The notes beneath the pieces were generated by a model. That model was not told where the DNA came from, did no database searches, and saw only the letters and a program-made list of their open reading frames with translations. The position numbers and the translations under genes were made by a program. Shown piece after piece: positions 19,944-57,230 of a DNA stretch of 64,000 nt. The stretch covers positions 576,001 to 640,000 of the forward strand of contig OZ252251.1 of the NCBI GenBank assembly GCA_965249725.1. The letters are read 5' to 3'. The DNA comes from Longimicrobiales bacterium (GTDB lineage Bacteria > Gemmatimonadota > Gemmatimonadetes > Longimicrobiales > Gaopeijiaceae). Positions within the stretch are counted from its first letter, which is position 1; every line of letters starts with the position of its first letter.

Positions 19944-20114
19944 GGTGAACTTCCTGGATGGGTGATTCACGAGTCTGAGACTCCACCAAGATCGGTGGTA
20001 AGGTCTGGGTTGTCGACCGGGGAAGGTGTCTCCCGGCCTCGCCCCCTCATATGTTGGCGGATCGCTCTTCGGGAGGCTCGCGCCTTTCCACGATTCGATG
20101 TTCAGGAGTTCGCC

Positions 20115-20966
20115 ATGCTCCGTTTCAAAGCCTTATTCGTCCCGCTGCGGGTAGCGGTGCGTGAATTGACCTGCCCGCGCACATACTGGTCCCGTACGGT
20201 GGCAGTGCTCCTGCTCGCCCTTGCCGGCCCCACCAGGGCATTAGGGCAGGACACCGCCCGTCCGCCCGGAGAGCGTGAGTTCCGAGCCCACTGCGCCCGC
20301 TGCCACGGAATCGACGGGGCCGGTGGGGAGGGCCCGAGCTTGGCGCGGCCCTTCCTGACCCGGGTCAGAGACGAGACCGGACTGGCGTCCCTAATCCTGA
20401 ACGGCATTCCGGGCACTGGCATGCCGGGCACGTGGTTCTTCTCCGCAACCGAGATCGAAGGACTGATCTCGTACGTGACTGCGCTGGGGCGCACACCCAA
20501 CGAGCCACTCACCGGTGATCCCGATCGGGGAAGGGCATTGTTCGAGAATAAGGGAGCCTGCACGACCTGTCACACGGTGGGCGGCTTCGGAACCAATAGG
20601 GGTCCGGACCTCTCGGCGGTCGGGGCCCGGCGCGGTGCCGGATACCTCTACGAATCCCTGATCGATCCCGGGGCGACGCTGCCGGAGGGCCTGACGGTCC
20701 TCCCGGTCGGCTTCTCGGACTACCTGCCCGTTCGCGTCGTGACACGCACCGGCGCGGAACTGAACGGTTATCGCGTCAACGAGGACTCGTACACGCTCCA
20801 GATCCGCGACGACGAGGGCCGGATCCTCTCCCTTCGCAAGCTAGATCTGGATGCGCTCGAGAAGCAGTTCGATGCGAGCCTGATGCCGAACTTCCGAAGC
20901 ACCTTCTCCGACGGAGAGTTGGACGACGTCGTAGCCTATCTCGCCAGCCTCAGGGGGCAGTCATGA
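20115..20966 (+). CDS. Di-heme c-type cytochrome, probable partner of the PQQ dehydrogenase
   Basis: CARCH and CTTCH; GPDLS...ESLIDP...SLMP domain; ATGA overlap with the next gene. Confidence 0.88.
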   Translation: MLRFKALFVPLRVAVRELTCPRTYWSRTVAVLLLALAGPTRALGQDTARPPGEREFRAHCARCHGIDGAGGEGPSLARPFLTRVRDETGLASLILNGIPGTGMPGTWFFSATEIEGLISYVTALGRTPNEPLTGDPDRGRALFENKGACTTCHTVGGFGTNRGPDLSAVGARRGAGYLYESLIDPGATLPEGLTVLPVGFSDYLPVRVVTRTGAELNGYRVNEDSYTLQIRDDEGRILSLRKLDLDALEKQFDASLMPNFRSTFSDGELDDVVAYLASLRGQS

Positions 20967-22555
20967 AAAGGATCGCGCTGATCATGTGGGTGGTCGTTGC
21001 CGTCCCCGGAGCACTTTCGGCGCAGGTGTCGTTCGAGCGCCTCGTACGAGCGGTGGAGGAGCCTCACAACTGGCTCACCTATTCCGGCTCGTATGCGTCG
21101 GAGCGGTACTCGTCGCTCGACGAGATCGACCGAAACACGGTCTCCGATCTGAAGGTGAAGTGGGTATACCAGATGCGGAACCCCGGTCTCGTCGAGACGA
21201 CCCCCATAGTGGTCGACGAAGTCATGTACATCACTGAGCCTCCCAGCACTGTAACGGCCCTCGATGTGCATACTGGACGTCGTCTGTGGACTTGGTCTCC
21301 GTCGATGCCTCCCGGGGTGTTGGCGATCGGTTTCCCCGAGGTTAATCGGGGCGTGGCCGTCCTCGACGACATGGTCTTCGTAGGAACGCTGAACGCTCAC
21401 TTGGTTGGGTTGGACGCGGCCTCGGGGACCGTTCGTTGGGACGTAGAGGTCGCGGACAACTCGATCGGATTTGCGATCACCGCTGCGCCACTGGCCGTAG
21501 ACGGGAAGATCATCATCGGTGTGAGTGGGGCCGAGGCCGGCGTGCGCGGTTTCGTGGACGCCTACGACGCCACCACGGGGGAGCGCATCTGGCGCCGGTA
21601 CACGGTGCCGGCCCCTGGGGAGCCCGGCAGCGAGACGTGGGGTGGGGACAGCTGGAAGACTGGAGGAGGGTCCACGTGGCTGACCGGCTCCTACGATCCC
21701 GATCTCAACCTCCTGTACTGGGGCATCGGGAACCCCGCCCCCGATTGGAATGGCGATGAGCGCCCGGGCGACAACCTCTACACCTGCTCCCTCATGGCCC
21801 TAGATGCCGACACGGGCGAGATGCGCTGGTACTTCCAATTCACACCCCACGACGTTCACGACTGGGACGCCAACGAGATTCCGCTCTTGATGGACCTGGA
21901 GATCGACGGACGCATGCGGCGGCTCGTCACGATGGCGAACCGCAACGCGTTCTACTACGTGCTCGACCGGGAGACCGGTGAGTTCATCACCGGCCGCGAG
22001 TATTCGAAGTAGACGTGGGCGTCTGGACTCGATGAGAACGGTCGTCCCATGGTTCTGCCCAACACGACGCCCACCGAAGAGGGCAACCTGGTGTGGCCCA
22101 GCCTCCAAGGGGCCACCAACTGGTTCAGCCCGAGCTACAGTCCCGACACGGAGATGGTCTACGTGGCCAACAGGGAGATGGGGTCCGTCTACTTCAAGGG
22201 TGAGGTGGAGTACGAGCCTGGAAAGCCCTTCATGGGCGGTGGAGAGCAGGCCATGAGCGGGGATGAGGCTTCGGGCTCGGTGAAGGCGCTCGACGTGCGG
22301 ACGGGGGAGGTCAGGTGGCGGTTCGGGCTGCTATCGCCCCCGTGGGCGGGTGTCATGTCGACCGGGGGTGGGCTGGTGTTCGGTGGTACCAATGAGAGCA
22401 ACTTCTTCGCGCTGGACGCCGACACGGGAGAGTCGTTGTGGGACTTCCACTCGGGTGCTGCAGCGCGATCGAATCCGATGTCGTTCGAGGTGCAGGGTCG
22501 GCAACGCGTCGCCATGGCAGCGGGTGGGGCTCTCTTCGTGTTCGGGCTGCCCTAG
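20963..22555 (+). pseudogene. PQQ-dependent dehydrogenase (alcohol/methanol dehydrogenase fold) interrupted by an in-frame TAG at 22010-22012
   Basis: ORFs 20963-22012 and 22049-22555 share a frame. Continuous translation reads ...GREYSK*TWASGLDENGRP.... Beta-propeller motifs ETTP, NRG, SGAE, GNPAP, HDVHDWDANE, NWFSPSY. Confidence 0.85.
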
Positions 22556-36394: not shown

Positions 36395-37090
36395 GTGCGA
36401 ACAGACATGAAGACCTATATGACTCAAACCGGCACGCTGGCCCTGACGGCGGGCCTCGTCGCTCCGTTCCTTTGGCCGACCCTCGGTCCCACGGCAGAGG
36501 CCGACCATCCGGCAACCGGGACGGTGCAGGGTACCGTGACTTTTGAGACTGTACCGGACGACGAGTTCTTCGAGATGTCGGACGCGGTGATCTACTTGTC
36601 CGGAGAGGGCCTGGCGGGCGCTCCGGCGGCGGCACGCACCCCCGAACAGCTGTTGCTGGACCAGATCGACTACACGTTCGTGCCCAGGGTGATACCGGTC
36701 TTGGCAGGGGACGTAATGTCGTTCCACAACAGTGACGACGAGCTCCACAACATCCATACGTACGCCAAGGGTCGGCGGCGGAATCGTAATTTCAATCGCG
36801 GCCAGCGACCCGGTTCGACGTTCACCGGCGTCTTTGCCAGACCCGACAGCGTTCGGGTGCTTTGCGACATCCACTCGCAGATGATTGCGCACATCCTGGT
36901 GCTCGAGAACGGATTCTTCACCAAGGTGAGCGACGACGGCACCTACTCCATCGGCAACGTGCCTCCGGGCCAATACGAACTCACGGCGTGGAGCGAGTGG
37001 CGCGGCGAGGTGAAGACCACCGTCGAGGTCGGAGACGGCCAGACGGTTACCGCAGACGTGGTCTTGCGGGACGCTGCAGGGGACCGCTAG
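36395..37090 (+). CDS. Exported cupredoxin-like protein with a carboxypeptidase-regulatory-like domain
   Basis: FVPRV, NSDDELHNIH, CDIHSQM (His/Cys/His/Met), VPPGQYELTAW. Confidence 0.8.
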   Translation: MRTDMKTYMTQTGTLALTAGLVAPFLWPTLGPTAEADHPATGTVQGTVTFETVPDDEFFEMSDAVIYLSGEGLAGAPAAARTPEQLLLDQIDYTFVPRVIPVLAGDVMSFHNSDDELHNIHTYAKGRRRNRNFNRGQRPGSTFTGVFARPDSVRVLCDIHSQMIAHILVLENGFFTKVSDDGTYSIGNVPPGQYELTAWSEWRGEVKTTVEVGDGQTVTADVVLRDAAGDR

Positions 37091-41480: not shown

Positions 41481-42329
41481 ATGAGATTTCGAAACCAACC
41501 CCGCCGCGGCCGATCCGGCCGCTTCGCGATATGTATCGAGACTGCTGTGTCTTCGATCCTGGTCTTTGGACTGTCGGCTTGTGGTGGGGACGCCGGCGGC
41601 GGAGCCGAGCGCACCCCTGTGGCGGAACAGCCGGCGGCGGGGGCCCCAGGTGGTGGCGACTCGGGCTACGCCGTAGTCACGGTTGACGACCCAGGTTCGA
41701 TCAGCGGCACCGTCAGCTTCTCCGGAGCCGTGCCCGCTCCCCGCAACGTGGCCGTTTCCGATGATGTGGAGGCGTGCGGCACTTTGGTCGAGGTGCAGGA
41801 TCTGGAGGTCGGCCCGGGCGGCGGGCTGGCGAACGCGGTCGTATCCCTTACGGACATCACCCGGGGAGCCCCCCTGGAGGCGTCGGCAGTTCCTCCCACT
41901 CTCGACCAGCGGGGCTGTCGGTTCTCGCCCCACGTCGTACTCGCGGCGGTCGATGAGGTCGTGGAGATTCTGAACAACGACCCCGTGATGCACAACGTCC
42001 ACACCGTGGCGTTCGACAACCGTGCGTTCAACCGAAGTCAGCCTCCCGCCGTGAAGAAGATCGACGCGAGCTTTCAGGTTCCCGAGAAAGTCCGAGCGAA
42101 GTGCGATATTCACGGGTGGATGAGTGCCTGGGTCGTGGTTGTCGACCACCCGTACTACGCCGTCACGGGCAGTGACGGAAGCTTTGTCGTCGAGAACGTC
42201 CCCCCCGGAACCTATACGCTGGAGGTGTGGCATGAGGCCTTGGGAGCCACCACCCGGACGGTGATGGTTACGGGCGGTGAGACTTCAGATGCGAGTGTGG
42301 AGTTGACGCAGGACGCGCCCCGACCGTGA
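41481..42329 (+). CDS. Cupredoxin-like lipoprotein with a carboxypeptidase-regulatory-like domain
   Basis: Lipobox LSAC; DQRGCRFSPHV, HNVH, CDIHGWM, VPPGTYTLEVWHE; GTGA overlap with the oxidase gene. Confidence 0.82.
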   Translation: MRFRNQPRRGRSGRFAICIETAVSSILVFGLSACGGDAGGGAERTPVAEQPAAGAPGGGDSGYAVVTVDDPGSISGTVSFSGAVPAPRNVAVSDDVEACGTLVEVQDLEVGPGGGLANAVVSLTDITRGAPLEASAVPPTLDQRGCRFSPHVVLAAVDEVVEILNNDPVMHNVHTVAFDNRAFNRSQPPAVKKIDASFQVPEKVRAKCDIHGWMSAWVVVVDHPYYAVTGSDGSFVVENVPPGTYTLEVWHEALGATTRTVMVTGGETSDASVELTQDAPRP

Positions 42330-44356
42330 ACTTCCGCCCATCCGGGTTCCTGGCGAAGAACACGTCGGTGCGATGCACCATGGTCGTCGCCGGTTGCGTA
42401 CTTGTCTGCCTTCTCTTCCCCGAGGTCCTGTGGGCCGTCCAGGGTGAGGCCCTGTCGTCGGGCGAGACCGTCCGAACCTTTTTCGGGCTGAGCCCCCGAG
42501 CCACAATATGGGTAGTGGCCCAGTTGCACCTCCTGTTCGCGGCATTCGTTCTCGGCGTTCCGATCTTCGCTGTTATCGTGGAATTCATCGGGTGGCGTAC
42601 GGGTGAGCAGCGCTATGATCGCCTGGCTCGGGAGTTCATCAAGCTTCTGACCGTTGCGTTCGCCACGACCGCCGCCCTCGGGGGGCTCCTGGCGTTCACG
42701 CTGTTCGGACTCTATCCGACGTTCTCGGGCTACTTCATCAGCATCTTTTCGCCGTCGCTTTACATCTACGCGGCGTTTTTCTTCGTTGAAACGGGGATCC
42801 TCTACAGCTACTACTATTCATGGGATCGCCTGATGCATCACAAGGGCGTCCACATCACCCTCGGCGTCTTGCTCAACTTGGCAGGCACCGTCCTGGTCTT
42901 CATCTCAAACGCGTGGGCTTCGTACATGATGAGCCCCGTCGGCGTGGACGAGACCGGCACCTTCGTCGGCACTACGATGGAAGCGGTCACGAATCCCCTT
43001 TGGATGCCGTTGAACATCCATCGTGTCCTGGGGAACGTGGCGTTCGGCGGGTTTGTCGTGGGTGCCTATGCCGCTGTCAAGTTCCTTGCCGCTCGCACGG
43101 AAGAGAGGCGGGCCCACTACGACTGGATGGGGTACGTCGGAAACTTCATCGGCCTGGCGGCACTGATACCGCTACCCTTCGCCGGGTACTACCTGGGTCG
43201 AGAAGTCTACAGCGCCAACGCGGTCATGGGAAACAACATGATGGGTGGGGCTTTCTCCTGGACCTTCATCTTGCAGGCCGCGCTCGTGGGCATGCTGTTC
43301 ATTATCGGCAACTACTACTTATGGTCGGGGATGAACCGCATTCCCGGAGCCGAGCGGTATCAGAGATTCGTCAAGTACTTCAACGTCATTCTGATCGTTT
43401 GTGTCGCCATCTGGCTCACCCCCAGGAACCTGCCTCTGAGCGCCGAGGAGCAGCTCGCGCTGGGGGGTCAGGTCCACCCGGTGCTGGGCTATTTTGGCCT
43501 GATGGCGGCCAAGAACGCGGTCATCAACTTCATCATCCTAACTACCTTCGCGAGCTTTCTGCTCTACCGAAGAGCAAACAAGACCGACTTGGTGCCGGTG
43601 TCGGAGCAGGGTCGTGGGGCCGCGACCCTCATCCTGCTGGCGGGCGGGTTGTGTCTGCTCATCCTCGGGTGGTATGCCAGAGTGCTCTTCACCTTGCCCC
43701 CGGACTCGCTGGGTCTAGGACCCGAGAAGGCGATATACGTCCAGATCCCCGCGTTCCTCCTCGTGGCTACGATGCTTGTTGCGGTTGTGTGCGTTGTCTT
43801 GTCGCTTCGGGACCGAGGCCACCTCGCCCAGATAGTCTATGTGGTCACCGTGGCCCTGGGGTCGGTGGGTGTGCTCGGAGTCTACGGGTTCGTCGTCATG
43901 GTGCAGGCCAATCCGCTATTGCGGCAGGTCGCGGCCACACAGTGGCTGATACTCATGTCGGCGTTGATCCTGGTCACCGCCATCGATGTTCTCCTGTTCC
44001 GGGGAGCCAGAAGCCTCGGGGCCATTCGCTGGGGCGAAGTCACGGCCCGCTCCCAGTACGCGTTGATCGCCCTCTGCGTGACCATAGTCTTGACCATGGG
44101 GCTCATGGGGTTCGTGCGCTCCGGGCTCAGGGAGAACTGGCACATTTACGGCGTCATGCGGGACACGTCTGAGTGGGGCTTCACTCCCACGACGGCGGTG
44201 ATGACACAGATGGTGGGAGCCATTACGCTCCTGTTTCTGACGGTTGTGGCTTTCTTGTTTTGGCTCTCGGGCCTGGATGCGAAGGAACAGGTGCCGGCGG
44301 AGTCCGAGGCGTCGGGTCCACGGAAACCGGTGCTCGAACCCGCAGGATCGGATTAG
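42326..44356 (+). CDS. Cytochrome bd-like oxidase subunit I (CydA superfamily, no Q-loop, OR-N/Nitrospira type)
   Basis: QLHLLFAAFVLG (E. coli H19 equivalent), FFVE (E107), SYMMSP, NIHR (H186), RSGLRENWHIYG (variant of GRQPW); many extra hydrophobic helices. Confidence 0.85.
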   Translation: MNFRPSGFLAKNTSVRCTMVVAGCVLVCLLFPEVLWAVQGEALSSGETVRTFFGLSPRATIWVVAQLHLLFAAFVLGVPIFAVIVEFIGWRTGEQRYDRLAREFIKLLTVAFATTAALGGLLAFTLFGLYPTFSGYFISIFSPSLYIYAAFFFVETGILYSYYYSWDRLMHHKGVHITLGVLLNLAGTVLVFISNAWASYMMSPVGVDETGTFVGTTMEAVTNPLWMPLNIHRVLGNVAFGGFVVGAYAAVKFLAARTEERRAHYDWMGYVGNFIGLAALIPLPFAGYYLGREVYSANAVMGNNMMGGAFSWTFILQAALVGMLFIIGNYYLWSGMNRIPGAERYQRFVKYFNVILIVCVAIWLTPRNLPLSAEEQLALGGQVHPVLGYFGLMAAKNAVINFIILTTFASFLLYRRANKTDLVPVSEQGRGAATLILLAGGLCLLILGWYARVLFTLPPDSLGLGPEKAIYVQIPAFLLVATMLVAVVCVVLSLRDRGHLAQIVYVVTVALGSVGVLGVYGFVVMVQANPLLRQVAATQWLILMSALILVTAIDVLLFRGARSLGAIRWGEVTARSQYALIALCVTIVLTMGLMGFVRSGLRENWHIYGVMRDTSEWGFTPTTAVMTQMVGAITLLFLTVVAFLFWLSGLDAKEQVPAESEASGPRKPVLEPAGSD

Positions 44357-44361
44357 CACGC

Positions 44362-45336
44362 ATGTCGGCTCTCAAGATCTCGGTCTTCACCATGTGCCTC
44401 ATCGGCCTTTTCATCTGGGCGGGAGGCGCGATCACGCGGGTGTCGGGCGAGGGCGCCCCGGCGGCGTTGGGTGAGGGACTCAGCGTGGAGAACGGGGAGC
44501 AGATCTTCTGGGGCCCGGGAAAGTGCAGCACGTGCCATTCCATCGGGAGTCGCGGGAGTTCCGTGAGGGGCCCGAACCTCGGCCAGTCGGTGGTGGGTCC
44601 GGAGATGGCCATCCGGGCCGTGGAACGGGCACGTGAGCGGTCGGCGGCCCTTGGCAGGACAGTGACGGGTACCGCCTACCTGATCGAGTCCATCGCCGAA
44701 CCGGGCGCCTATGTGGTCGATGGCTTCAAGAACGAGATGCCGATCGTTTACGAGCCGCCTATCAGCCTCGGGCCGGATCAGATCGGCTCCGTCATCCTTT
44801 ACCTTCAGTCCCAGGGTGGCTCACCCGATCCCACGGCCGTGGTGCTGCCCCCTGAGATCCACGCTGCAGCCCGTCGGACCAGCGACGCGGAGCCGTGGGC
44901 ACCTTACATGGATGGCGATTCTCTTGCGGGCCGTGAGCTGTTCTTCGATCTGGAGGGACCGACTCCCTGCGCCAAGTGCCACAGGATCGACGGAGAGGGC
45001 GGCGATGTGGGGCCCGACCTCACGGGCGTCGCTGGAATGCGAACGGCACAGTTCATCGTGGAGTCGATTCTTCAACCCAGCAAAGTAATCGCCGGAGGGT
45101 ACGAGGCTGTCCTCGTGCAGACGACGGACGGGCGCCTCTTGGACGGCGTAATCCGGCGGGAGACCGAGGACACGGTGTGGCTGGCCACGGCCGACGGGGT
45201 GGAGTTCGCCCTCACTGCCGGGAGCATCGCTCGTCGGCGAACGCAGGAGCTATCCCTCATGCCGGGCGACTTTGCCGATCTCCTGTCGGTTGGCGGCCTG
45301 CACGACCTCTTGGCGTTCCTCCGAACACGGCAGTAA
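44362..45336 (+). CDS. Membrane-anchored di-heme c-type cytochrome
   Basis: N-terminal TM helix; CSTCH...YLIESIAEPGAYVVDGFKNEMP; CAKCH...GPDL...SLMP. Confidence 0.88.
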   Translation: MSALKISVFTMCLIGLFIWAGGAITRVSGEGAPAALGEGLSVENGEQIFWGPGKCSTCHSIGSRGSSVRGPNLGQSVVGPEMAIRAVERARERSAALGRTVTGTAYLIESIAEPGAYVVDGFKNEMPIVYEPPISLGPDQIGSVILYLQSQGGSPDPTAVVLPPEIHAAARRTSDAEPWAPYMDGDSLAGRELFFDLEGPTPCAKCHRIDGEGGDVGPDLTGVAGMRTAQFIVESILQPSKVIAGGYEAVLVQTTDGRLLDGVIRRETEDTVWLATADGVEFALTAGSIARRRTQELSLMPGDFADLLSVGGLHDLLAFLRTRQ

Positions 45337-45348
45337 AGGAGCACTGAC

Positions 45349-46140
45349 TTGGTAAAGGAAGGCGAACCTCGCGTGGGGGGAAGCGGCTTTGCGGCGGCGG
45401 CGGTCACCTTCATCGCGGTCTACGTGGGTCTTCGCTTCGGGGTCCCGTGGCTCGCCGTCCTCGTTGGGCTGAGTCAGACTCCTGCGCCCGTTCCGGGGTT
45501 CGCGCTCGGGGGCTACATGGCGTGCGTCGTTGTGGGCACGTTGGTCTACATGAGTGCTGAAGAGGGACGCTGGCACCTGTTCCTCGTTCCGGTGGTCGGG
45601 GTCTTCACCATCCCCGCCGAGGGCCCGCGGCGTGCCCAGTTGGTGATTCTGGCGCTTATCCCGTTGCTTGCGGGATGGGCGGCGTGGCGGCGGTTGGTGC
45701 CCCCCCCCCGCACCCCGGCCGTAATCCGCGTTCAACACCCGGCCCTCCCCGACCAGTTCGCGGCACTCGAGAACCCGTACGGTGAGGCGTCGCAGGAGGA
45801 ACGAGCGCTACTCGAGCGCGAGGGCGTCGTTCTCTACCAGAAGAACTGCAGGCCCTGCCACGGGACGAAGGCTGACGGGTCAGGGCCTTTGGCTAGGGGT
45901 CAGCGTCTTCGGCCCGTCGATTTTGGCGATCCTGGAACGATCGCCACCGTGGTGGAGCCCTACCCCTTCTGGAGGATCAGTGAAGGGACGAAGGGGCTGC
46001 CCGGCATCGCCACGCCCTGGAACTCTGCCATGCCCTCCTGGGGAGAAGAGCTCGACGACGAAGAGATCTGGCGTATCATCATGGCCGAGTACCGTCTAGC
46101 GGGGACCGAGCCCCGCCGGCCGGAGGGCTCGGAGCGATGA
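45349..46140 (+). CDS. Membrane mono-heme c-type cytochrome
   Basis: About 3 TM helices, then CRPCHG..ADGSG and PWNSAMP; TTG start after AAGGAG. Confidence 0.87.
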   Translation: MVKEGEPRVGGSGFAAAAVTFIAVYVGLRFGVPWLAVLVGLSQTPAPVPGFALGGYMACVVVGTLVYMSAEEGRWHLFLVPVVGVFTIPAEGPRRAQLVILALIPLLAGWAAWRRLVPPPRTPAVIRVQHPALPDQFAALENPYGEASQEERALLEREGVVLYQKNCRPCHGTKADGSGPLARGQRLRPVDFGDPGTIATVVEPYPFWRISEGTKGLPGIATPWNSAMPSWGEELDDEEIWRIIMAEYRLAGTEPRRPEGSER

Positions 46141-47840
46141 GTGCGTGGGTCGGAAGAGGCTCGGTCGTCGCCCTATTGGCGGTTGGGCTTTCTGGGATAG
46201 CGCCGACCGACGGCGCGGCCCAGTGGTACGAGCTCCGTGTTCCCGAGAGGCCGGCTCTGGATGACACCGACGTCGAGAAGGGTAGGGAGGTATACCAGGA
46301 GCGCTGCTGGTTCTGTCACGGTGATGACGGCGACGGCGAGGGTCCGGTAGCGCCATACCTCTTTCCGCGGCCCCGGGACTTCACCATGGGCAGCTTCAAG
46401 CTCCGCACGACCCAGAGTGGCGAGCTTCCCCTCGATGAGGACCTCTTTCGGACGATTACGCTGGGCATCGACGGCACCGCCATGCCGGGCTGGGAATCCC
46501 ACCTCACCGAGGAGGAGCGGTGGCAGGTGATCGCGTACGTCAAGAGCTTCGCCGCCGATCTCTTCGAGGACGAGTTTTTCGATCCGTACCAGGCCATCGT
46601 AGAGATTGGAGACCCGCCGGGTGGGGCCCAGGAGGATCTGGTCGCGGCGGGCCAGATCGTCTTCGACGAGAACAAGTGCTGGGAGTGCCACGGAGCCCTC
46701 GGGCGAGGGGACGGCGACAGGGCCCCCGAGCTGACGGACGATTGGGATTTCCCCATCGCGCCCACCGACCTCCATGTTGGATGGAAGATCAAAGGAGGCC
46801 GGTCGGTGCGCGAGCTCTACCTGCGCTTTTCGACGGGCCTCGACGGCACGCCCATGCCCTCCTATGAGGCGACCGTCGGCGAAGAGCAGCGGTGGCAGTT
46901 GGCCTATTACGTGGCTTCTCTCACCGGCGACGTGGAGGACGACGATTCGGGCGGCGGCGTCATCATTCCCGGGCGCCGAATCGATGGTCCGCTACCCGCG
47001 GGACCCCTCGACCCCGCGTGGGAATGGGCCGCAGAGGTTTCGGTGCCGTTGACGGGTCAGGCCACGTTCGCGCCCCGGTGGCAGATCCCGGCCGTGACGG
47101 ACCTGGCTGTCAGGGTGCTTTTCAACGAAGACGAGATCGCTTTTCGCCTGGCTTGGGACGATCGATTCGCCGATACGACCGCGGTCGACTCGTTGCTCTC
47201 CCTTTCGGAAGGATGGAGTGCGGACGACACCTATCCGCGACTGTTCCCCGACGGTGGGCGAGTGCGCGGGTACTTCAGTGATGCGGCGGAGGTCATGATT
47301 CCCGTGCGTTACGAGGAGAGTCCGGTCCTGCCTCACTTCGTATACGGGAATGCCGGCAAACCCGTGGACCTCTGGCGATGGCAGGCGGACCGGCAGTACG
47401 CTCACGCAAACACAGCGGCCGTGGTGGAGCTTCGTGCGGCCGGCGCTGAACGGCCACCGGAGCCCCATGCCTTGGAGAGTCAGACCGCGACGGGAGGCGG
47501 CGTTTGGGCCGACGGTCGCTGGTCGGTCGTGATCCGCAGACGCCTCCGGACGGAGGAGGGCGCGGCGGAGGTGCAACTCCGCCCCGGGGATCTGATTCCC
47601 CTGGCCTTCCACGTGTGGGAGGGAAACAACGGAGAGACGGGACTCAGGATGAGCCTATCGTCGTGGGCGTTCCTCGATCTGCATGAGCCCGCCCCGGTTA
47701 TGACCTACTTCGCCGTGCTCTTGGTCGTCATCCTCGCTGGGCTGCTCGAATTGGGCGTCGTCCGATGGAGCGCACGACGACGGGCCACACCTTCTCCGTT
47801 CGAGAGAGGCGTGGATCCGCCCACCTATAGCGAGAGTTGA
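46137..47840 (+). CDS. Di-heme cytochrome c fused to an ethylbenzene-dehydrogenase gamma-like (DOMON) domain with a C-terminal anchor
   Basis: CWFCH..PRPRDF..TAMP; CWECH..TPMP; IAFRLAWDD, PVDLWRW, GRWSVVIRRRL, AFHVWEG; C-terminal TM helix. Confidence 0.87.
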   Translation: MSAWVGRGSVVALLAVGLSGIAPTDGAAQWYELRVPERPALDDTDVEKGREVYQERCWFCHGDDGDGEGPVAPYLFPRPRDFTMGSFKLRTTQSGELPLDEDLFRTITLGIDGTAMPGWESHLTEEERWQVIAYVKSFAADLFEDEFFDPYQAIVEIGDPPGGAQEDLVAAGQIVFDENKCWECHGALGRGDGDRAPELTDDWDFPIAPTDLHVGWKIKGGRSVRELYLRFSTGLDGTPMPSYEATVGEEQRWQLAYYVASLTGDVEDDDSGGGVIIPGRRIDGPLPAGPLDPAWEWAAEVSVPLTGQATFAPRWQIPAVTDLAVRVLFNEDEIAFRLAWDDRFADTTAVDSLLSLSEGWSADDTYPRLFPDGGRVRGYFSDAAEVMIPVRYEESPVLPHFVYGNAGKPVDLWRWQADRQYAHANTAAVVELRAAGAERPPEPHALESQTATGGGVWADGRWSVVIRRRLRTEEGAAEVQLRPGDLIPLAFHVWEGNNGETGLRMSLSSWAFLDLHEPAPVMTYFAVLLVVILAGLLELGVVRWSARRRATPSPFERGVDPPTYSES

Positions 47841-54787: not shown

Positions 54788-55647
54788 TGAAGCGACGCTC
54801 TTTCGTGGCAGGAGCGGCGGGTGCGGTGGCCGGCTTCGGTGCGGTCCGTCCGGCTGATCCGTCCGAGTGGGAAGCCCAAGGCCCGGGCCGGCTGCACCAG
54901 TCCGTGTGTAGGTGGCCGTTCGAGGACATCCCGCTCGAGGATTTTTGTCGCGAAGCCCGTGCCATGGGCCTCGAGGCCATCGACCTGCTGTTCCCCGACG
55001 AGTGGGCCGTCGCCCATTCCCACGGTCTCGCGGTGTCCATGGGGTATGCGTCCCGACGCCCTCGACTGATTGCCGACGGGTTCAACGATCGCGCGATGCA
55101 CTCGTCGGTGATCGAGGAGCTGGAGATCGCGATCCCTGAAGCGGCCGAGGCGGGAGTACGCAACTTGATCGTCATGAGCGGGAGTCGCCGGGGTCGGACT
55201 GAAATCGAGGGCATCACCGCCTGTGCCGAAGGATTGCGCCAAATCACCCCCGCGGCCGAGCGGTATGGCGTGACGTTGTGCCTCGAGATGCTCAACAGTA
55301 CGGTGGACCACGCCGACTACGACGCCGACTCTACCCGGTACGGACTTGAGGTTGTCCAGAGGGTCGGCTCACCGAACTTTCGCCTGCTCTACGACATCTA
55401 CCACATGCAGGTCATGGAAGGGAACGTCATCGCTACCTTGCGGGCTCACGGGGACGCCATCGTCCACATACACACGGCCGGCGTGCCTGGTCGCCACGAG
55501 TTGGACGAGTCCCAAGAATTGAACTACCGGGGCATCGCTCTCGCCTTGGCCGACCTAGCGTTTCCCGGCTACATAGCGCACGAATTCAATCCGACCAGGG
55601 AGCCCATCGGGGCGATACGAGACGCGGTGGAAGTGTGCCGGGTATGA
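54787..55647 (+). CDS. Hydroxypyruvate isomerase-like TIM barrel with a Tat signal
   Basis: KRRSFV; EMLNS.VDH.DY, LLYDIYHMQVMEG, HTAGVPGRHE, HEF. Confidence 0.88.
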   Translation: MKRRSFVAGAAGAVAGFGAVRPADPSEWEAQGPGRLHQSVCRWPFEDIPLEDFCREARAMGLEAIDLLFPDEWAVAHSHGLAVSMGYASRRPRLIADGFNDRAMHSSVIEELEIAIPEAAEAGVRNLIVMSGSRRGRTEIEGITACAEGLRQITPAAERYGVTLCLEMLNSTVDHADYDADSTRYGLEVVQRVGSPNFRLLYDIYHMQVMEGNVIATLRAHGDAIVHIHTAGVPGRHELDESQELNYRGIALALADLAFPGYIAHEFNPTREPIGAIRDAVEVCRV

Positions 55648-55719
55648 GCGGTGGAAGTGTGCCGGGTATGAGCGGTGGAAGTGTGCCGGGTATGAGCGGT
55701 GGACGTGTGCCGGGTATGA
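55624..55719 (+). repeat. Tandem repeat, 4 x 24 bp (GCGGTGGAAGTGTGCCGGGTATGA)
   Basis: Three identical units start at 55624, 55648 and 55672. A fourth at 55696 has one A>C change. There are no spacers. Confidence 0.97.
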
Positions 55720-57230
55720 GCGGGGACGTGACCGGGGATGGCGCCACGTCGCCCCAGGGGACCGGCCTAGCACGGGAGCTGGGCCTGCTAGGGCTCGCCG
55801 CGACGGGCATCTGCTCCATGCTGGGGGCCGCCATCAACGTGGTCCCCATCATGATTCAGCGGAACGTACCGGGCATCGGCCCTTATGTGCTCCATGCCTA
55901 TATCTACGGGGCGATTCCTGCGATCCTGGCCGCCTTGGCCTACGCGGTCCTGTCCTCTGCCATGCCCCGAGCCGGCGGCAGCTACGTCTACGGAAGCCGC
56001 GGTCTGAGCCCCTACCTCGGCTTCGTCGCCAGCTTCTCGCAGTGGTTCGGTCTCAGCATCGCGATCGGTGTCGTGTCATACGTAATGATCCCCTTCCTGA
56101 GGGACATCGCGTCGGCTGTCGGCTGGCATCCCCTCGCCGAGAGTCTCGACGTGGGTGTGGTTCGTGTGACCTTGGCGCTCGCCTTCCTCTGGACGTTCGT
56201 GGGGGTCAACCTGCGGGGCGTGCGGCTGTATGAGAGGACCTTGGTTCCGTTGATGTTCGTGATGTTCGTGTTGGGAGCCGTCGTCATCGTCGCGGGCTTC
56301 TCGTTCGATCACCAGGACTTCGCCGCGGCGATCCAGTTGAGAGAAGGGCGGACCATTCCCGATGCGGTCGCTCCTCCTTTCAAGATCAGCACGTATCTGA
56401 CCGCGTCGGCTCTCCTCTTCTCGAGCTTCATCGGGTTCGACTCGATCGCACAGGCAGGCGGCGAGGCGAAGAACCCGGCTCGCGCCCTTCCTCTGGCCAT
56501 CGGGATCGCCGTTGTCACGGTAGGCAGCTTCTACATGCTGTTCACTGCGGCGGTCTACCACGCGGTACCCTGGAGCTACGTGGCCGAGCAGGCCCAGGTC
56601 CAGGATCTCACCGCGCCCGGCTTGCTGGGGTACCTTCTGCCGCCCGCCTGGACGGTGGCGATCGTGGCCGGAGCGGCCGTTGCGTTGATGAACGACCTGC
56701 CGGCGATGCTACTCGCGGTGTCGAGGTTGATGTTCGCGTGGGCCGAGGACGGGATCTTCCCTCGCAGTGTGGCGAAGGTGCATCCGGAGTGGCACACGCC
56801 GCATGTGGCCATCCTCCTCAGTGGTCTCATGGCGTCGGTTGGCATCCTCGGAAGTCACATGGCCGGTGATTTCTTCTTGGGCATCGACATCCTCGTCACG
56901 TCGATGTTGGTCAACTTCCTCGTCATGTGCCTGGCCGTACTCGCGCTGCCGCGACGTAACCCCGATATCGCACGCGACGTGAGCGTCCTGCCTTCTCGCC
57001 CGCTACAGGTTGGCGTCGCGACACTGGGAATCGTGATGCTCTCGATCTTTCTCGTGGTCCATGTCTGGAAGGACTTGAGCACGACCGTGGATGCCTGGTA
57101 TTTCCACTCGACCCCGGTGTGGTTGGGCGTAATGGCGGTCGCCACGGTCATCTATCTGAAGGAGCTTCGCAACCTCCGGTCACAAGGCGTCGACGTCGAT
57201 GAGCTCTTCTCGACGCTCCCGCCGGAATAG
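55644..57230 (+). CDS. APC family amino-acid/polyamine permease
   Basis: LARELG, MPRAGGSYVY, FIGFDSIAQAGGEAKNP, SRLMFAWAEDG, TPHVA; about 12 TM. Four alternative in-frame ATGs lie in the repeat. Confidence 0.92.
   Translation: MSGGSVPGMSGGSVPGMSGGRVPGMSGDVTGDGATSPQGTGLARELGLLGLAATGICSMLGAAINVVPIMIQRNVPGIGPYVLHAYIYGAIPAILAALAYAVLSSAMPRAGGSYVYGSRGLSPYLGFVASFSQWFGLSIAIGVVSYVMIPFLRDIASAVGWHPLAESLDVGVVRVTLALAFLWTFVGVNLRGVRLYERTLVPLMFVMFVLGAVVIVAGFSFDHQDFAAAIQLREGRTIPDAVAPPFKISTYLTASALLFSSFIGFDSIAQAGGEAKNPARALPLAIGIAVVTVGSFYMLFTAAVYHAVPWSYVAEQAQVQDLTAPGLLGYLLPPAWTVAIVAGAAVALMNDLPAMLLAVSRLMFAWAEDGIFPRSVAKVHPEWHTPHVAILLSGLMASVGILGSHMAGDFFLGIDILVTSMLVNFLVMCLAVLALPRRNPDIARDVSVLPSRPLQVGVATLGIVMLSIFLVVHVWKDLSTTVDAWYFHSTPVWLGVMAVATVIYLKELRNLRSQGVDVDELFSTLPPE

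Follow-up and report, generated by a model that had tools for sequence, protein, structure and literature searches.

In the anammox bacterium Kuenenia stuttgartiensis, the genes kustd1713-1709 form the accessory half of the nxr cluster, which encodes nitrite oxidoreductase (NXR) (PMC6423088, Table 1). Nitrospina, Kuenenia, and Nitrospira share this gene set with its cupredoxins, three helices replace the Q-loop in the bd-like protein, and a role as alternative complex III (ACIII) has been suggested (PMC3578206). In addition, the four-gene core of the bd-like_3/alt_NxrC_2 cluster of Nitrospira moscoviensis is highly expressed (PMC6606698), and the four-gene core TO_1 is the most expressed oxidase candidate of the aerobic Ca. 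Manganitrophus (10.1101/2021.11.15.468770). OR-N1 and OR-N2 have been defined as 14-helix subfamilies of the cytochrome bd superfamily (10.1101/2021.01.16.426971). In this study, we analysed a stretch of 64,000 nucleotides (the window; contig OZ252251.1 of GCA_965249725.1, positions 576,001 to 640,000) from a Longimicrobiales bacterium of the phylum Gemmatimonadota, in which five consecutive genes code for a cupredoxin-motif lipoprotein, a CydA-like protein, and three cytochromes c. Judged by their sequences, the five genes are a copy of the anammox-type module (kustd1713-1709) and belong to the OR-N (N1/N2) bd-like family, because the gene order, the tree position, and the extra-helix form agree.

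The five-gene module and its closest relatives

The module includes the following genes:

41481..42329, + strand: gene 1, cupredoxin-motif lipoprotein, 282 amino acids; kustd1713 orthologue by position ("blue copper protein")
42326..44356, + strand: gene 2, CydA-like subunit of OR-N (N1/N2) type, 676 amino acids, GTG start; kustd1712 clade
44362..45336, + strand: gene 3, diheme cytochrome c with a "nose" domain, 324 amino acids; Kustd1711 orthologue (PDB 7ZS0)
45349..46140, + strand: gene 4, monoheme cytochrome c, 263 amino acids, TTG start; kustd1710 position
46137..47840, + strand: gene 5, diheme cytochrome c with an EbdC/NxrC-like domain, 567 amino acids; kustd1709 or "alt_NxrC_2" type

From gene 1 to gene 5, the junctions measure -4, +5, +12, and -4 bp. 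There are five CxxCH motifs in all (CSTCH55, CAKCH203, CRPCH167, CWFCH57, and CWECH181), and the homologue columns show a conserved distal Met for all five c hemes. The coordinates, overlaps, gaps, and motifs given in an initial annotation of the window were all reproduced, and the fusion of the last cytochrome to an EbdC-like domain that it described was confirmed by a PF09459 match on gene 5. An esterase-like gene on the opposite strand and an FAD oxidoreductase gene 22 bp downstream flank the module and lie outside the conserved set. A promoter and terminator scan of the locus gave a signal no better than chance. Furthermore, the GC content at third codon positions is 0.75-0.81 in the module genes and 0.80 +/- 0.04 in the genome, and a recent transfer of the module into the host is unsupported because the two values match.

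In a metagenome-assembled genome (MAG) of Kuenenia, the order is cupredoxin, cydA-like, diheme, monoheme, diheme-EbdC, tetraheme, monoheme, and uspA, which matches the published kustd1713-1706. The window has the same five genes as Kuenenia stuttgartiensis kustd1713-kustd1709 in the same order, and its CydA-like protein falls in the same fully supported clade, carries the same two-helix insert, and is 53-57% identical to the anammox copies. However, nxrABC and the tetraheme, monoheme, and uspA genes that follow in Kuenenia are missing here, and the host genome has no NxrA match. The window cupredoxin bears a lipobox, the host has aa3 and caa3 oxidases, and the Met/Lys positions of the EbdC-domain heme b, kept in the anammox copies, are Tyr/Met with a new His400 in the window copy. 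Meanwhile, the module shares with those of Nitrospira and Nitrospina and with Manganitrophus TO_1 a bd-like subunit that is accompanied by a pair of c-type cytochromes and by an EbdC-like anchor with two hemes. Nevertheless, bd-like_3-type proteins (identified by context) group with a paralogue type that the host also has, apart from the window type; the insert is missing in them, and their diheme cytochrome is a different one.

The architecture of the module is not new, and in this respect the initial annotation was overstated: the same five-gene set, including the cupredoxin, is already published for anammox bacteria and Nitrospina (PMC6423088, Table 1; PMC3578206); what this locus adds is the Gemmatimonadota context without NXR. 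The annotation also left out the anammox orthology, a second module that lies before the aa3 oxidase of the host, the changes of Glu99 to Tyr and Glu445 to Ser, and the rival idea of a quinone relay, all of which are treated below.

The CydA-like subunit and its partners

To place gene 2 in the bd superfamily, a tree was built in which 10 rows of canonical quinol oxidases (qOR) split from 44 OR-N-like rows at an SH-aLRT support of 100; the tree is midpoint-rooted and carries a long-branch warning. Gene 2 lies outside qOR and groups with Nitrospirota bd-like proteins, whose labels were assigned from gene order and not from accessions. For cydB, the profile PF02322 gave 0 matches in the host genome, which is 95.8% complete, and in 0/10 other Gemmatimonadota carriers, and the profile control was positive in 9/14 genomes; a tblastn search with three CydB queries was also blank and was run without a positive control. 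A canonical bd oxidase with a distant cydB is ruled out by the PF02322 searches and the tree. By Murali's criteria, the sequence of gene 2 points to OR-N of the N1/N2 kind, of which it would be a variant with more than the published 14 helices. Like other OR-N proteins, it has no quinol site and no heme c in the subunit, has no cydB beside it, keeps His19, and sits in an operon with alternative donors; it differs from them by two extra helices and by Tyr at Glu99. As for the subfamily, NIDE0901-like proteins are called OR-N2 in PMC12342949, which would make the window protein N1. According to Murali, N2 is often found without a second cydA (10.1101/2021.01.16.426971), and this fits the window protein.

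Pfam recognizes only the N-terminal third of gene 2 (PF01654, residues 58-296, E 2.8e-27). An AlphaFold2 (AF2) model, built without hemes, reached a predicted local distance difference test score (pLDDT) of 87.8 and a predicted template modelling score (pTM) of 0.88. It has 15 long helices and an N-terminal hydrophobic segment, that is, 14 helices plus a two-helix insert. The insert (residues about 442-511) marks the window and anammox type and is absent from 73 paralogue-type rows. The best VIA structural match was 5ir6_A (Z 34.0, root-mean-square deviation 3.1, 352 aligned), the top four VIA rows were CydA chains (Z 32-34), and the Foldseek top 10 were all CydA. Weaker VIA matches were ACIII ActF (Z 21-23) and PsrC (Z 15.7). 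On this model, gene 2 has the bd (CydA) fold, with its four-helix core and helices V-IX.

The alignment of gene 2 with nine qOR sequences of the same family (hhalign) gave H68 = H19, Y148 = E99, E155 = E107, H176 = H126, and H232 = H186 in E. coli numbering, and each of the five residues H68, Y148, E155, H176, and H232 is invariant in 108/108 homologues. The C-terminal motif could be mapped through its Arg/Trp anchors, which is a weak match, and this places Ser599 at E445 and Gly595 at W441. M393 is invariant within an F-x-x-M motif and lies 62 residues before the E445 equivalent in insert-free homologues, compared with 52-53 in qOR; from the motif and the spacing, M393 is the predicted second ligand of heme b558. 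The quinol-binding motif of the Q-loop, present in 8/11 qOR controls, is absent from the gene 2 sequence, and in the AF2 model helices occupy the place of the Q-loop. With 0 CxxCH motifs and 15-16 helices, gene 2 is unlike OR-C, in which subunit I has CxxCH motifs and about 8 helices. In summary, the protein keeps the subunit I fold and His19, Glu107, His126, and His186 of canonical CydAB, whereas it lacks the Q-loop, CydB, Glu99, Glu445, and Trp441 and has six to seven more helices. Both Glu99 and Glu445 serve the high-spin hemes in the solved bd oxidases (PMC8951039, PMC12994193). Since both are lost, the simplest reading is that the core of gene 2 probably holds two hemes with an altered distal pocket. 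A literature search for the Tyr/Ser changes returned only unrelated papers; we do not claim that the changes are new, and the supplements of Murali et al. may list them.

Gene 1 includes a lipobox (LSAC, Cys34), a C-terminal CarboxypepD-like beta-sandwich (PF13620), and a type-1 copper motif (His / Cys-x-x-His-x-x-Met; H171/C208/H211/M214) that is invariant in 46/46 homologues. Searches for a Pfam copper domain and for a cupredoxin in the PDB gave no match, and the label "cupredoxin" rests on the motif and on the literature on kustd1713. Most of the copper protein of Kuenenia is found in soluble form, and kustd1705-1712 are bound to the membrane (PMC11897245). By analogy with this partition, the product of gene 1 is likely an electron carrier, which is lipid-tethered here.

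Gene 3 matches PDB 7ZS0 (Kustd1711) with E 1.7e-70 over residues 3-322 and also matches TIGR02603. It keeps the two CxxCH motifs as well as the pair of distal Met residues (M126 and M300, which do not vary in 28/28), its identity to the Kuenenia copies is about 40%, and it is less net negative (39 D+E vs 26 K+R). By this full-length sequence match, gene 3 is the Kustd1711 orthologue. The His/Met hemes of Kustd1711 were measured at about +350 mV and are tuned by Ca2+ (PMC11791136). The orthology supports a wiring at high potential through cytochrome c and copper; the initial annotation had suggested a feed by cytochrome c or a copper protein. That annotation also counted three membrane cytochromes. 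All three match cytochrome c families in Pfam; the membrane status of gene 3 is uncertain, and its single N-terminal hydrophobic stretch may be cleaved off as a signal, which has been described for Kustd1711.

Gene 4 has three predicted N-terminal membrane helices, a distal M228, and an extra invariant His130 in an RxQHP motif. Co-folding of subunit 2 with subunit 4 scored 0.42 against 0.00 for the best control (runs 0.42/0.00/0.49), where the runs agree in at least 1% of contacts and the partner pLDDT is at least 62. The mark for a positive pair was reached by 116/157 solved and 2/215 mismatched pairs; of the pairs that reached it, 18 of the 157 solved ones and both mismatches did so at <=0.60. 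The prediction yielded neither interface nor heme contacts. These models lend weak support to binding between subunits 2 and 4.

In gene 5, the EB_dh domain (PF09459) covers residues 292-503 (E 1.3e-20), the protein has a C-terminal membrane anchor, and the diheme part matches PDB 6h5l_B (E 1.6e-58), which we take to be Kustc0457. In the alignment to 2ivf_C, the positions of Met and Lys, presumably the ligands of the EbdC heme b, are Tyr403 and Met505. His400 occurs together with Met505 in 13/30 gene 5 rows, and Met/Lys in 9/30. By this comparison, the EbdC-domain heme b of gene 5 is either re-liganded or lost.

Distribution of the module and the host genome

A search for related loci yielded 78 loci from many phyla among the best 80 of 587 confirmed stretches. 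The best named relative among the loci listed was a Gemmatimonadales MAG (L009; 83% identity), and a genome of the host family codes for a protein of equal length and scores. The partner genes were recovered in 75, 71, and 67 of the 78 loci. In the tree of CydA-like proteins (108 rows, with one duplicate dropped and truncated loci excluded), the window type forms a clade of 35 rows with support 100, which includes the sampled anammox rows and also MAGs of Rokubacteria, Methylomirabilia, Poribacteria, KSB1, Nitrospinota, and Nitrospirae. The remaining 73 rows are the paralogue type, including the second copy of the host itself. A cupredoxin gene lies directly upstream in 22/27 window-type loci with enough flank (29 loci in the set), and the cytochrome order is kept in 19/23 window-type loci and in 33/34 paralogue-type loci (49 in the set). 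Thus, the gene arrangement is not due to chance. The initial annotation had named three results as contrary to its view, namely a grouping with qOR CydA plus a cognate cydB elsewhere, an unconserved gene order, and oxidation of quinol. Gene 2 stands apart from qOR without Q-loop and cydB, the order is conserved, and none of the contrary results that could be tested was obtained.

Among 150 other genomes of the host family, we found the window type in 8, and a visual count gave about 58 with a nearly full-length paralogue type; both types are present in 7/8 of the carriers. In one carrier of the same genus (L103; G093:C9:510510-512496), the window-type cydA-like gene is split in two frames, by a frameshift or an assembly error. 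A recent duplication within Gemmatimonadota was rejected, with an approximately unbiased (AU) test p of 3.5e-56 against the window and host paralogue types as one clade (30 rows, quick tree). Because this single clade is rejected, the two types are, on the sequence data, old and separately acquired paralogues. An obligate CydAA' heterodimer with the paralogue is disfavoured as well: the Kuenenia, Poribacteria, and Nitrospinota MAGs, which are incomplete, have one cydA-like match each. Both module types stand in tandem or back to back in six loci (L018:537-15434, L010, L023, L036, L037, and L149), and in the Nitrospirae MAG (L018) the two modules come after a Rieske/cytochrome b pair. Other neighbours differ among the loci. 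NxrA/NxrB-like and chaperone genes lie directly upstream of the window-type module in the Poribacteria and Nitrospinota MAGs (L014:767-6448 and L019:3-5735), and MauG/peroxidase-like diheme genes lie directly downstream in L030:15001-17288 and L036:15519-20962, the latter also with an arsenite-oxidase-like pair. A literature search joining Gemmatimonadota with bd-like or OR-N proteins found no paper mentioning Gemmatimonadota; the phylum distribution of OR-N modules may already stand in the supplements of Murali et al.

The host genome (4.16 Mb) is of a marine type and includes two cydA-like genes, one oxidase each of the caa3 and aa3 types, an operon similar to that of ACIII, NirK, and genes similar to cytochrome b6 and, more divergently, to NorB. 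An NxrA-type gene gave no match in it, and five molybdopterin-family matches fail the NxrA query. NxrA-type matches occur in 0/11 Gemmatimonadota carriers, some of which are incomplete, vs 9/17 other carriers, of which one is the query's own genome and two are fragments. Since the module occurs here without an NxrA match and beside two A-type oxidases and ACIII, the gene content indicates that it is not NXR-specific. RuBisCO and CdhC were not found in the host genome (controls positive), and the search for ATP-citrate lyase was uninformative; the host is probably heterotrophic, as the initial annotation had it. No nosZ exceeded the cut-off in the host, where the control reached the cut-off in 0/14.

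The second module of the host is as follows:

L006:6319-19218 (G000:C1, about 249300-262200), - strand: cydA-like (48-50% identical), diheme, monoheme, diheme-EbdC, and cupredoxin genes

Directly after it stand coxB-coxA-coxC, and before it UspA-PCP_red and AhbD/NirJ2-like radical-SAM genes. A Usp gene is found in 44/78 loci and a radical-SAM gene in 24/78; they are possibly heme or assembly factors that serve the window module in trans.

Several other genes of the host and of the window were seen during the analysis. Behind a diheme cytochrome c, L008:6846-9475 (-) codes for a divergent heme-copper-family subunit (PF00115, E 2.6e-19) with no NCBIfam match at 1e-8 and no PDB sequence match. 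Judged by eye, this subunit appears to have Asn in place of the first His that binds the non-heme metal in the NorB motif, as in proposed NO dismutases; similar weak matches occur in G035, G086, G093, G158, G153, and G166. The host genome has six cupredoxin-motif/CarboxypepD genes, and one of them lies at window 36395-37090 (+), 4.4 kb upstream of the module, with a counterpart likewise upstream of the module in G058, G056, and G035. At window 19962-22555 (+), a diheme cytochrome c gene (25% identity to gene 3) precedes an apparent pyrroloquinoline quinone (PQQ)-dehydrogenase gene in two open reading frames (by eye), and these genes are a candidate periplasmic electron donor. In addition, L156:5730-7759 codes for a fusion of NirK with a cytochrome c domain, next to genes for an Rrf2 regulator and for heme biosynthesis, and L087 (G000:C2:161968-163239) for a molybdopterin enzyme whose frame contains one TGA that possibly stands for selenocysteine. 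At window 55635-55740 (+), an open reading frame begins with a short tandem repeat of about 8 codons.

Possible functions of the module

We tentatively favour the idea that the module is an oxygen reductase fed by cytochrome c and cupredoxin, and give it somewhat less than an even chance. Periplasmic electrons at about +350 mV would enter the five c-type hemes and pass through the predicted heme b558 to the predicted His68 heme, where O2, the presumed acceptor, would be reduced with protons that likely come from the cytoplasm. The core would hold two hemes, at His232/Met393 and at His68, and the third heme would be lost with the change of Glu445 to Ser. The invariant Tyr148 in place of Glu99 might be a distal proton or electron donor or a displaceable ligand, and the three-helix monoheme cytochrome would take the place of CydB. 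Charge would be separated without pumping. In this host, the electrons would come from ACIII or periplasmic dehydrogenases rather than NXR, and the module would be an extra, perhaps low-O2, terminal branch beside caa3 and aa3. The proton path (E155 and H176) is kept, which in view of bd biochemistry (PMC8951039) would fit a proton-consuming reduction, and the orthology of gene 3 to the +350 mV cytochrome points to the acceptor end of the chain. The CydA fold, the invariant H68 at the His19 site, the high expression of TO_1 in the aerobic Ca. Manganitrophus, the two modules after a Rieske/cytochrome b pair in L018, and, weakly, the co-folding of subunits 2 and 4 also speak for this reading.

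Several observations weigh against an oxygen reductase. The Glu99 position is Tyr in 108/108 homologues, the Glu445 position (S599) is Ser in 101/108 and Ala in 7/108, and Tyr148 could block the His68 heme by binding it as its sixth ligand. The anammox rows fall 12/12 inside the closest clade, and in the anaerobe Kuenenia the genes are part of the nxr cluster and decrease together with it when NO is fed (PMC6423088). According to PMC10839748, enzymes of the OR-N family have yet to be assayed. Furthermore, the host has two A-type heme-copper oxidases, likewise 7/7 of the module-carrying family relatives. The paralogous module lies directly upstream of coxBAC in the host, where complex III would be expected; the distance from it to the downstream coxA is about 7 kb, both in the host and in 7/7 relatives. 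However, the Tyr/Ser changes are also present in the Nitrospirota bd-like paralogues, including the type labelled I from gene order (Nide0901-like), and three cultivated aerobic Nitrospirales have, according to PMC12342949, no other oxygen reductase. Thus, these changes are not necessarily incompatible with O2 chemistry. The use of the scaffold may also vary between hosts.

The strongest rival, to which we give odds clearly lower than to the oxygen reductase, is a quinone-linked relay similar to complex III, in which two b hemes would pass electrons between menaquinone, bound at a site not yet recognised, and the c hemes and the cupredoxin, and no gas would be reduced. The outlet would be a heme-copper oxidase in this host and the NXR connection in nitrite oxidisers. 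Such a role was proposed for the gene set (PMC3578206, PMC6606698). It would suit the loss of E99 and E445, the occurrence in anaerobic anammox bacteria with co-regulation with NXR, and the redundancy of a host with two A-type oxidases already there. The position of the paralogue upstream of coxA also fits: in loci of at least 15 kb, coxA/coxB lie near 12/26 paralogue-type modules, but near 0/21 window-type modules. The fold resembles ActF and PsrC too; however, this likeness is below that to CydA and shows no function. Meanwhile, the quinol-site motif is absent, an ACIII operon is already present in the host, and reverse transport from nitrite to quinone has been argued against (PMC6423088). 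Reverse transport would have no obvious drive on a scaffold of the bd type whose two hemes lie close to the periplasm.

A reductase that takes electrons from cytochrome c and converts a nitrogen oxide at the His68 heme (NO to N2O, or nitrite to NO) is improbable in our opinion. The +350 mV of the hemes agrees with the +380 mV of the nitrite/NO couple, a coupling of nitrite oxidation with the reduction of nitrite has been proposed for anammox bacteria (PMC6423088), NXR-type genes accompany the module in 9/17 carriers outside Gemmatimonadota (with the query's genome and the two fragments counted), and the host has NirK. However, NirK is not enriched among carriers: it is over the cut-off in 3/10 other Gemmatimonadota carriers vs 5/20 family genomes without the window type, and a link between the module and NirK was rejected on this ground. 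In addition, no non-heme metal site was identified, and in Kuenenia 60-85% of the nitrite-reducing activity is in the intermediate fraction, whereas 84-99.5% of kustd1705-1712 is in the membrane fraction (PMC11897245).

The least probable alternative is a non-respiratory role in O2 or peroxide scavenging, or as a membrane platform that holds periplasmic oxidoreductases and itself catalyses little, which the patchy occurrence in the host family (8/150 other genomes), the varying neighbours (NXR, MauG/peroxidase-like, and arsenite-oxidase-like genes), and the altered EbdC heme-b ligands would allow, while the heme ligands and proton-path residues are strictly conserved across many phyla and related modules are very highly expressed in Nitrospira and Manganitrophus (PMC6606698, 10.1101/2021.11.15.468770).

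If the oxygen reductase is extended to the family, the OR-N modules might represent a distinct O2 chemistry, with a site of two hemes b, an invariant Tyr for Glu99, no third heme, a Ca2+-tuned wire of cytochrome and blue copper protein that feeds it at about +350 mV, and a three-helix cytochrome c instead of CydB. They would then be a widespread, mis-annotated oxidase of heterotrophs (Gemmatimonadota, Acidobacteriota, Rhodothermota, and others) and not an accessory of nitrite oxidation. This broader proposal is speculative, and we consider it rather unlikely as a whole.

The finding of an anammox-type module that is parted from NXR and stands beside ordinary oxidases weakens an "NXR-only" role. 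It bears on the route of electrons from +400 mV donors to O2 in Nitrospira, Nitrospina, and Manganitrophus, and on the role of the membrane half of the anammox nxr cluster. The compact five-gene cassette suits expression and a first OR-N assay, and Tyr148, Ser599, and His130 of subunit 4 are the residues whose mutation would decide the mechanism. In addition, our results suggest that, in Gemmatimonadota and similar genomes, cydA matches that lack cydB may wrongly be counted as quinol oxidases of the cytochrome bd type. For instance, a survey of Gemmatimonadota reported "cytochrome bd" in 53% of 326 genomes (PMC9426454), and part of these may be such modules.

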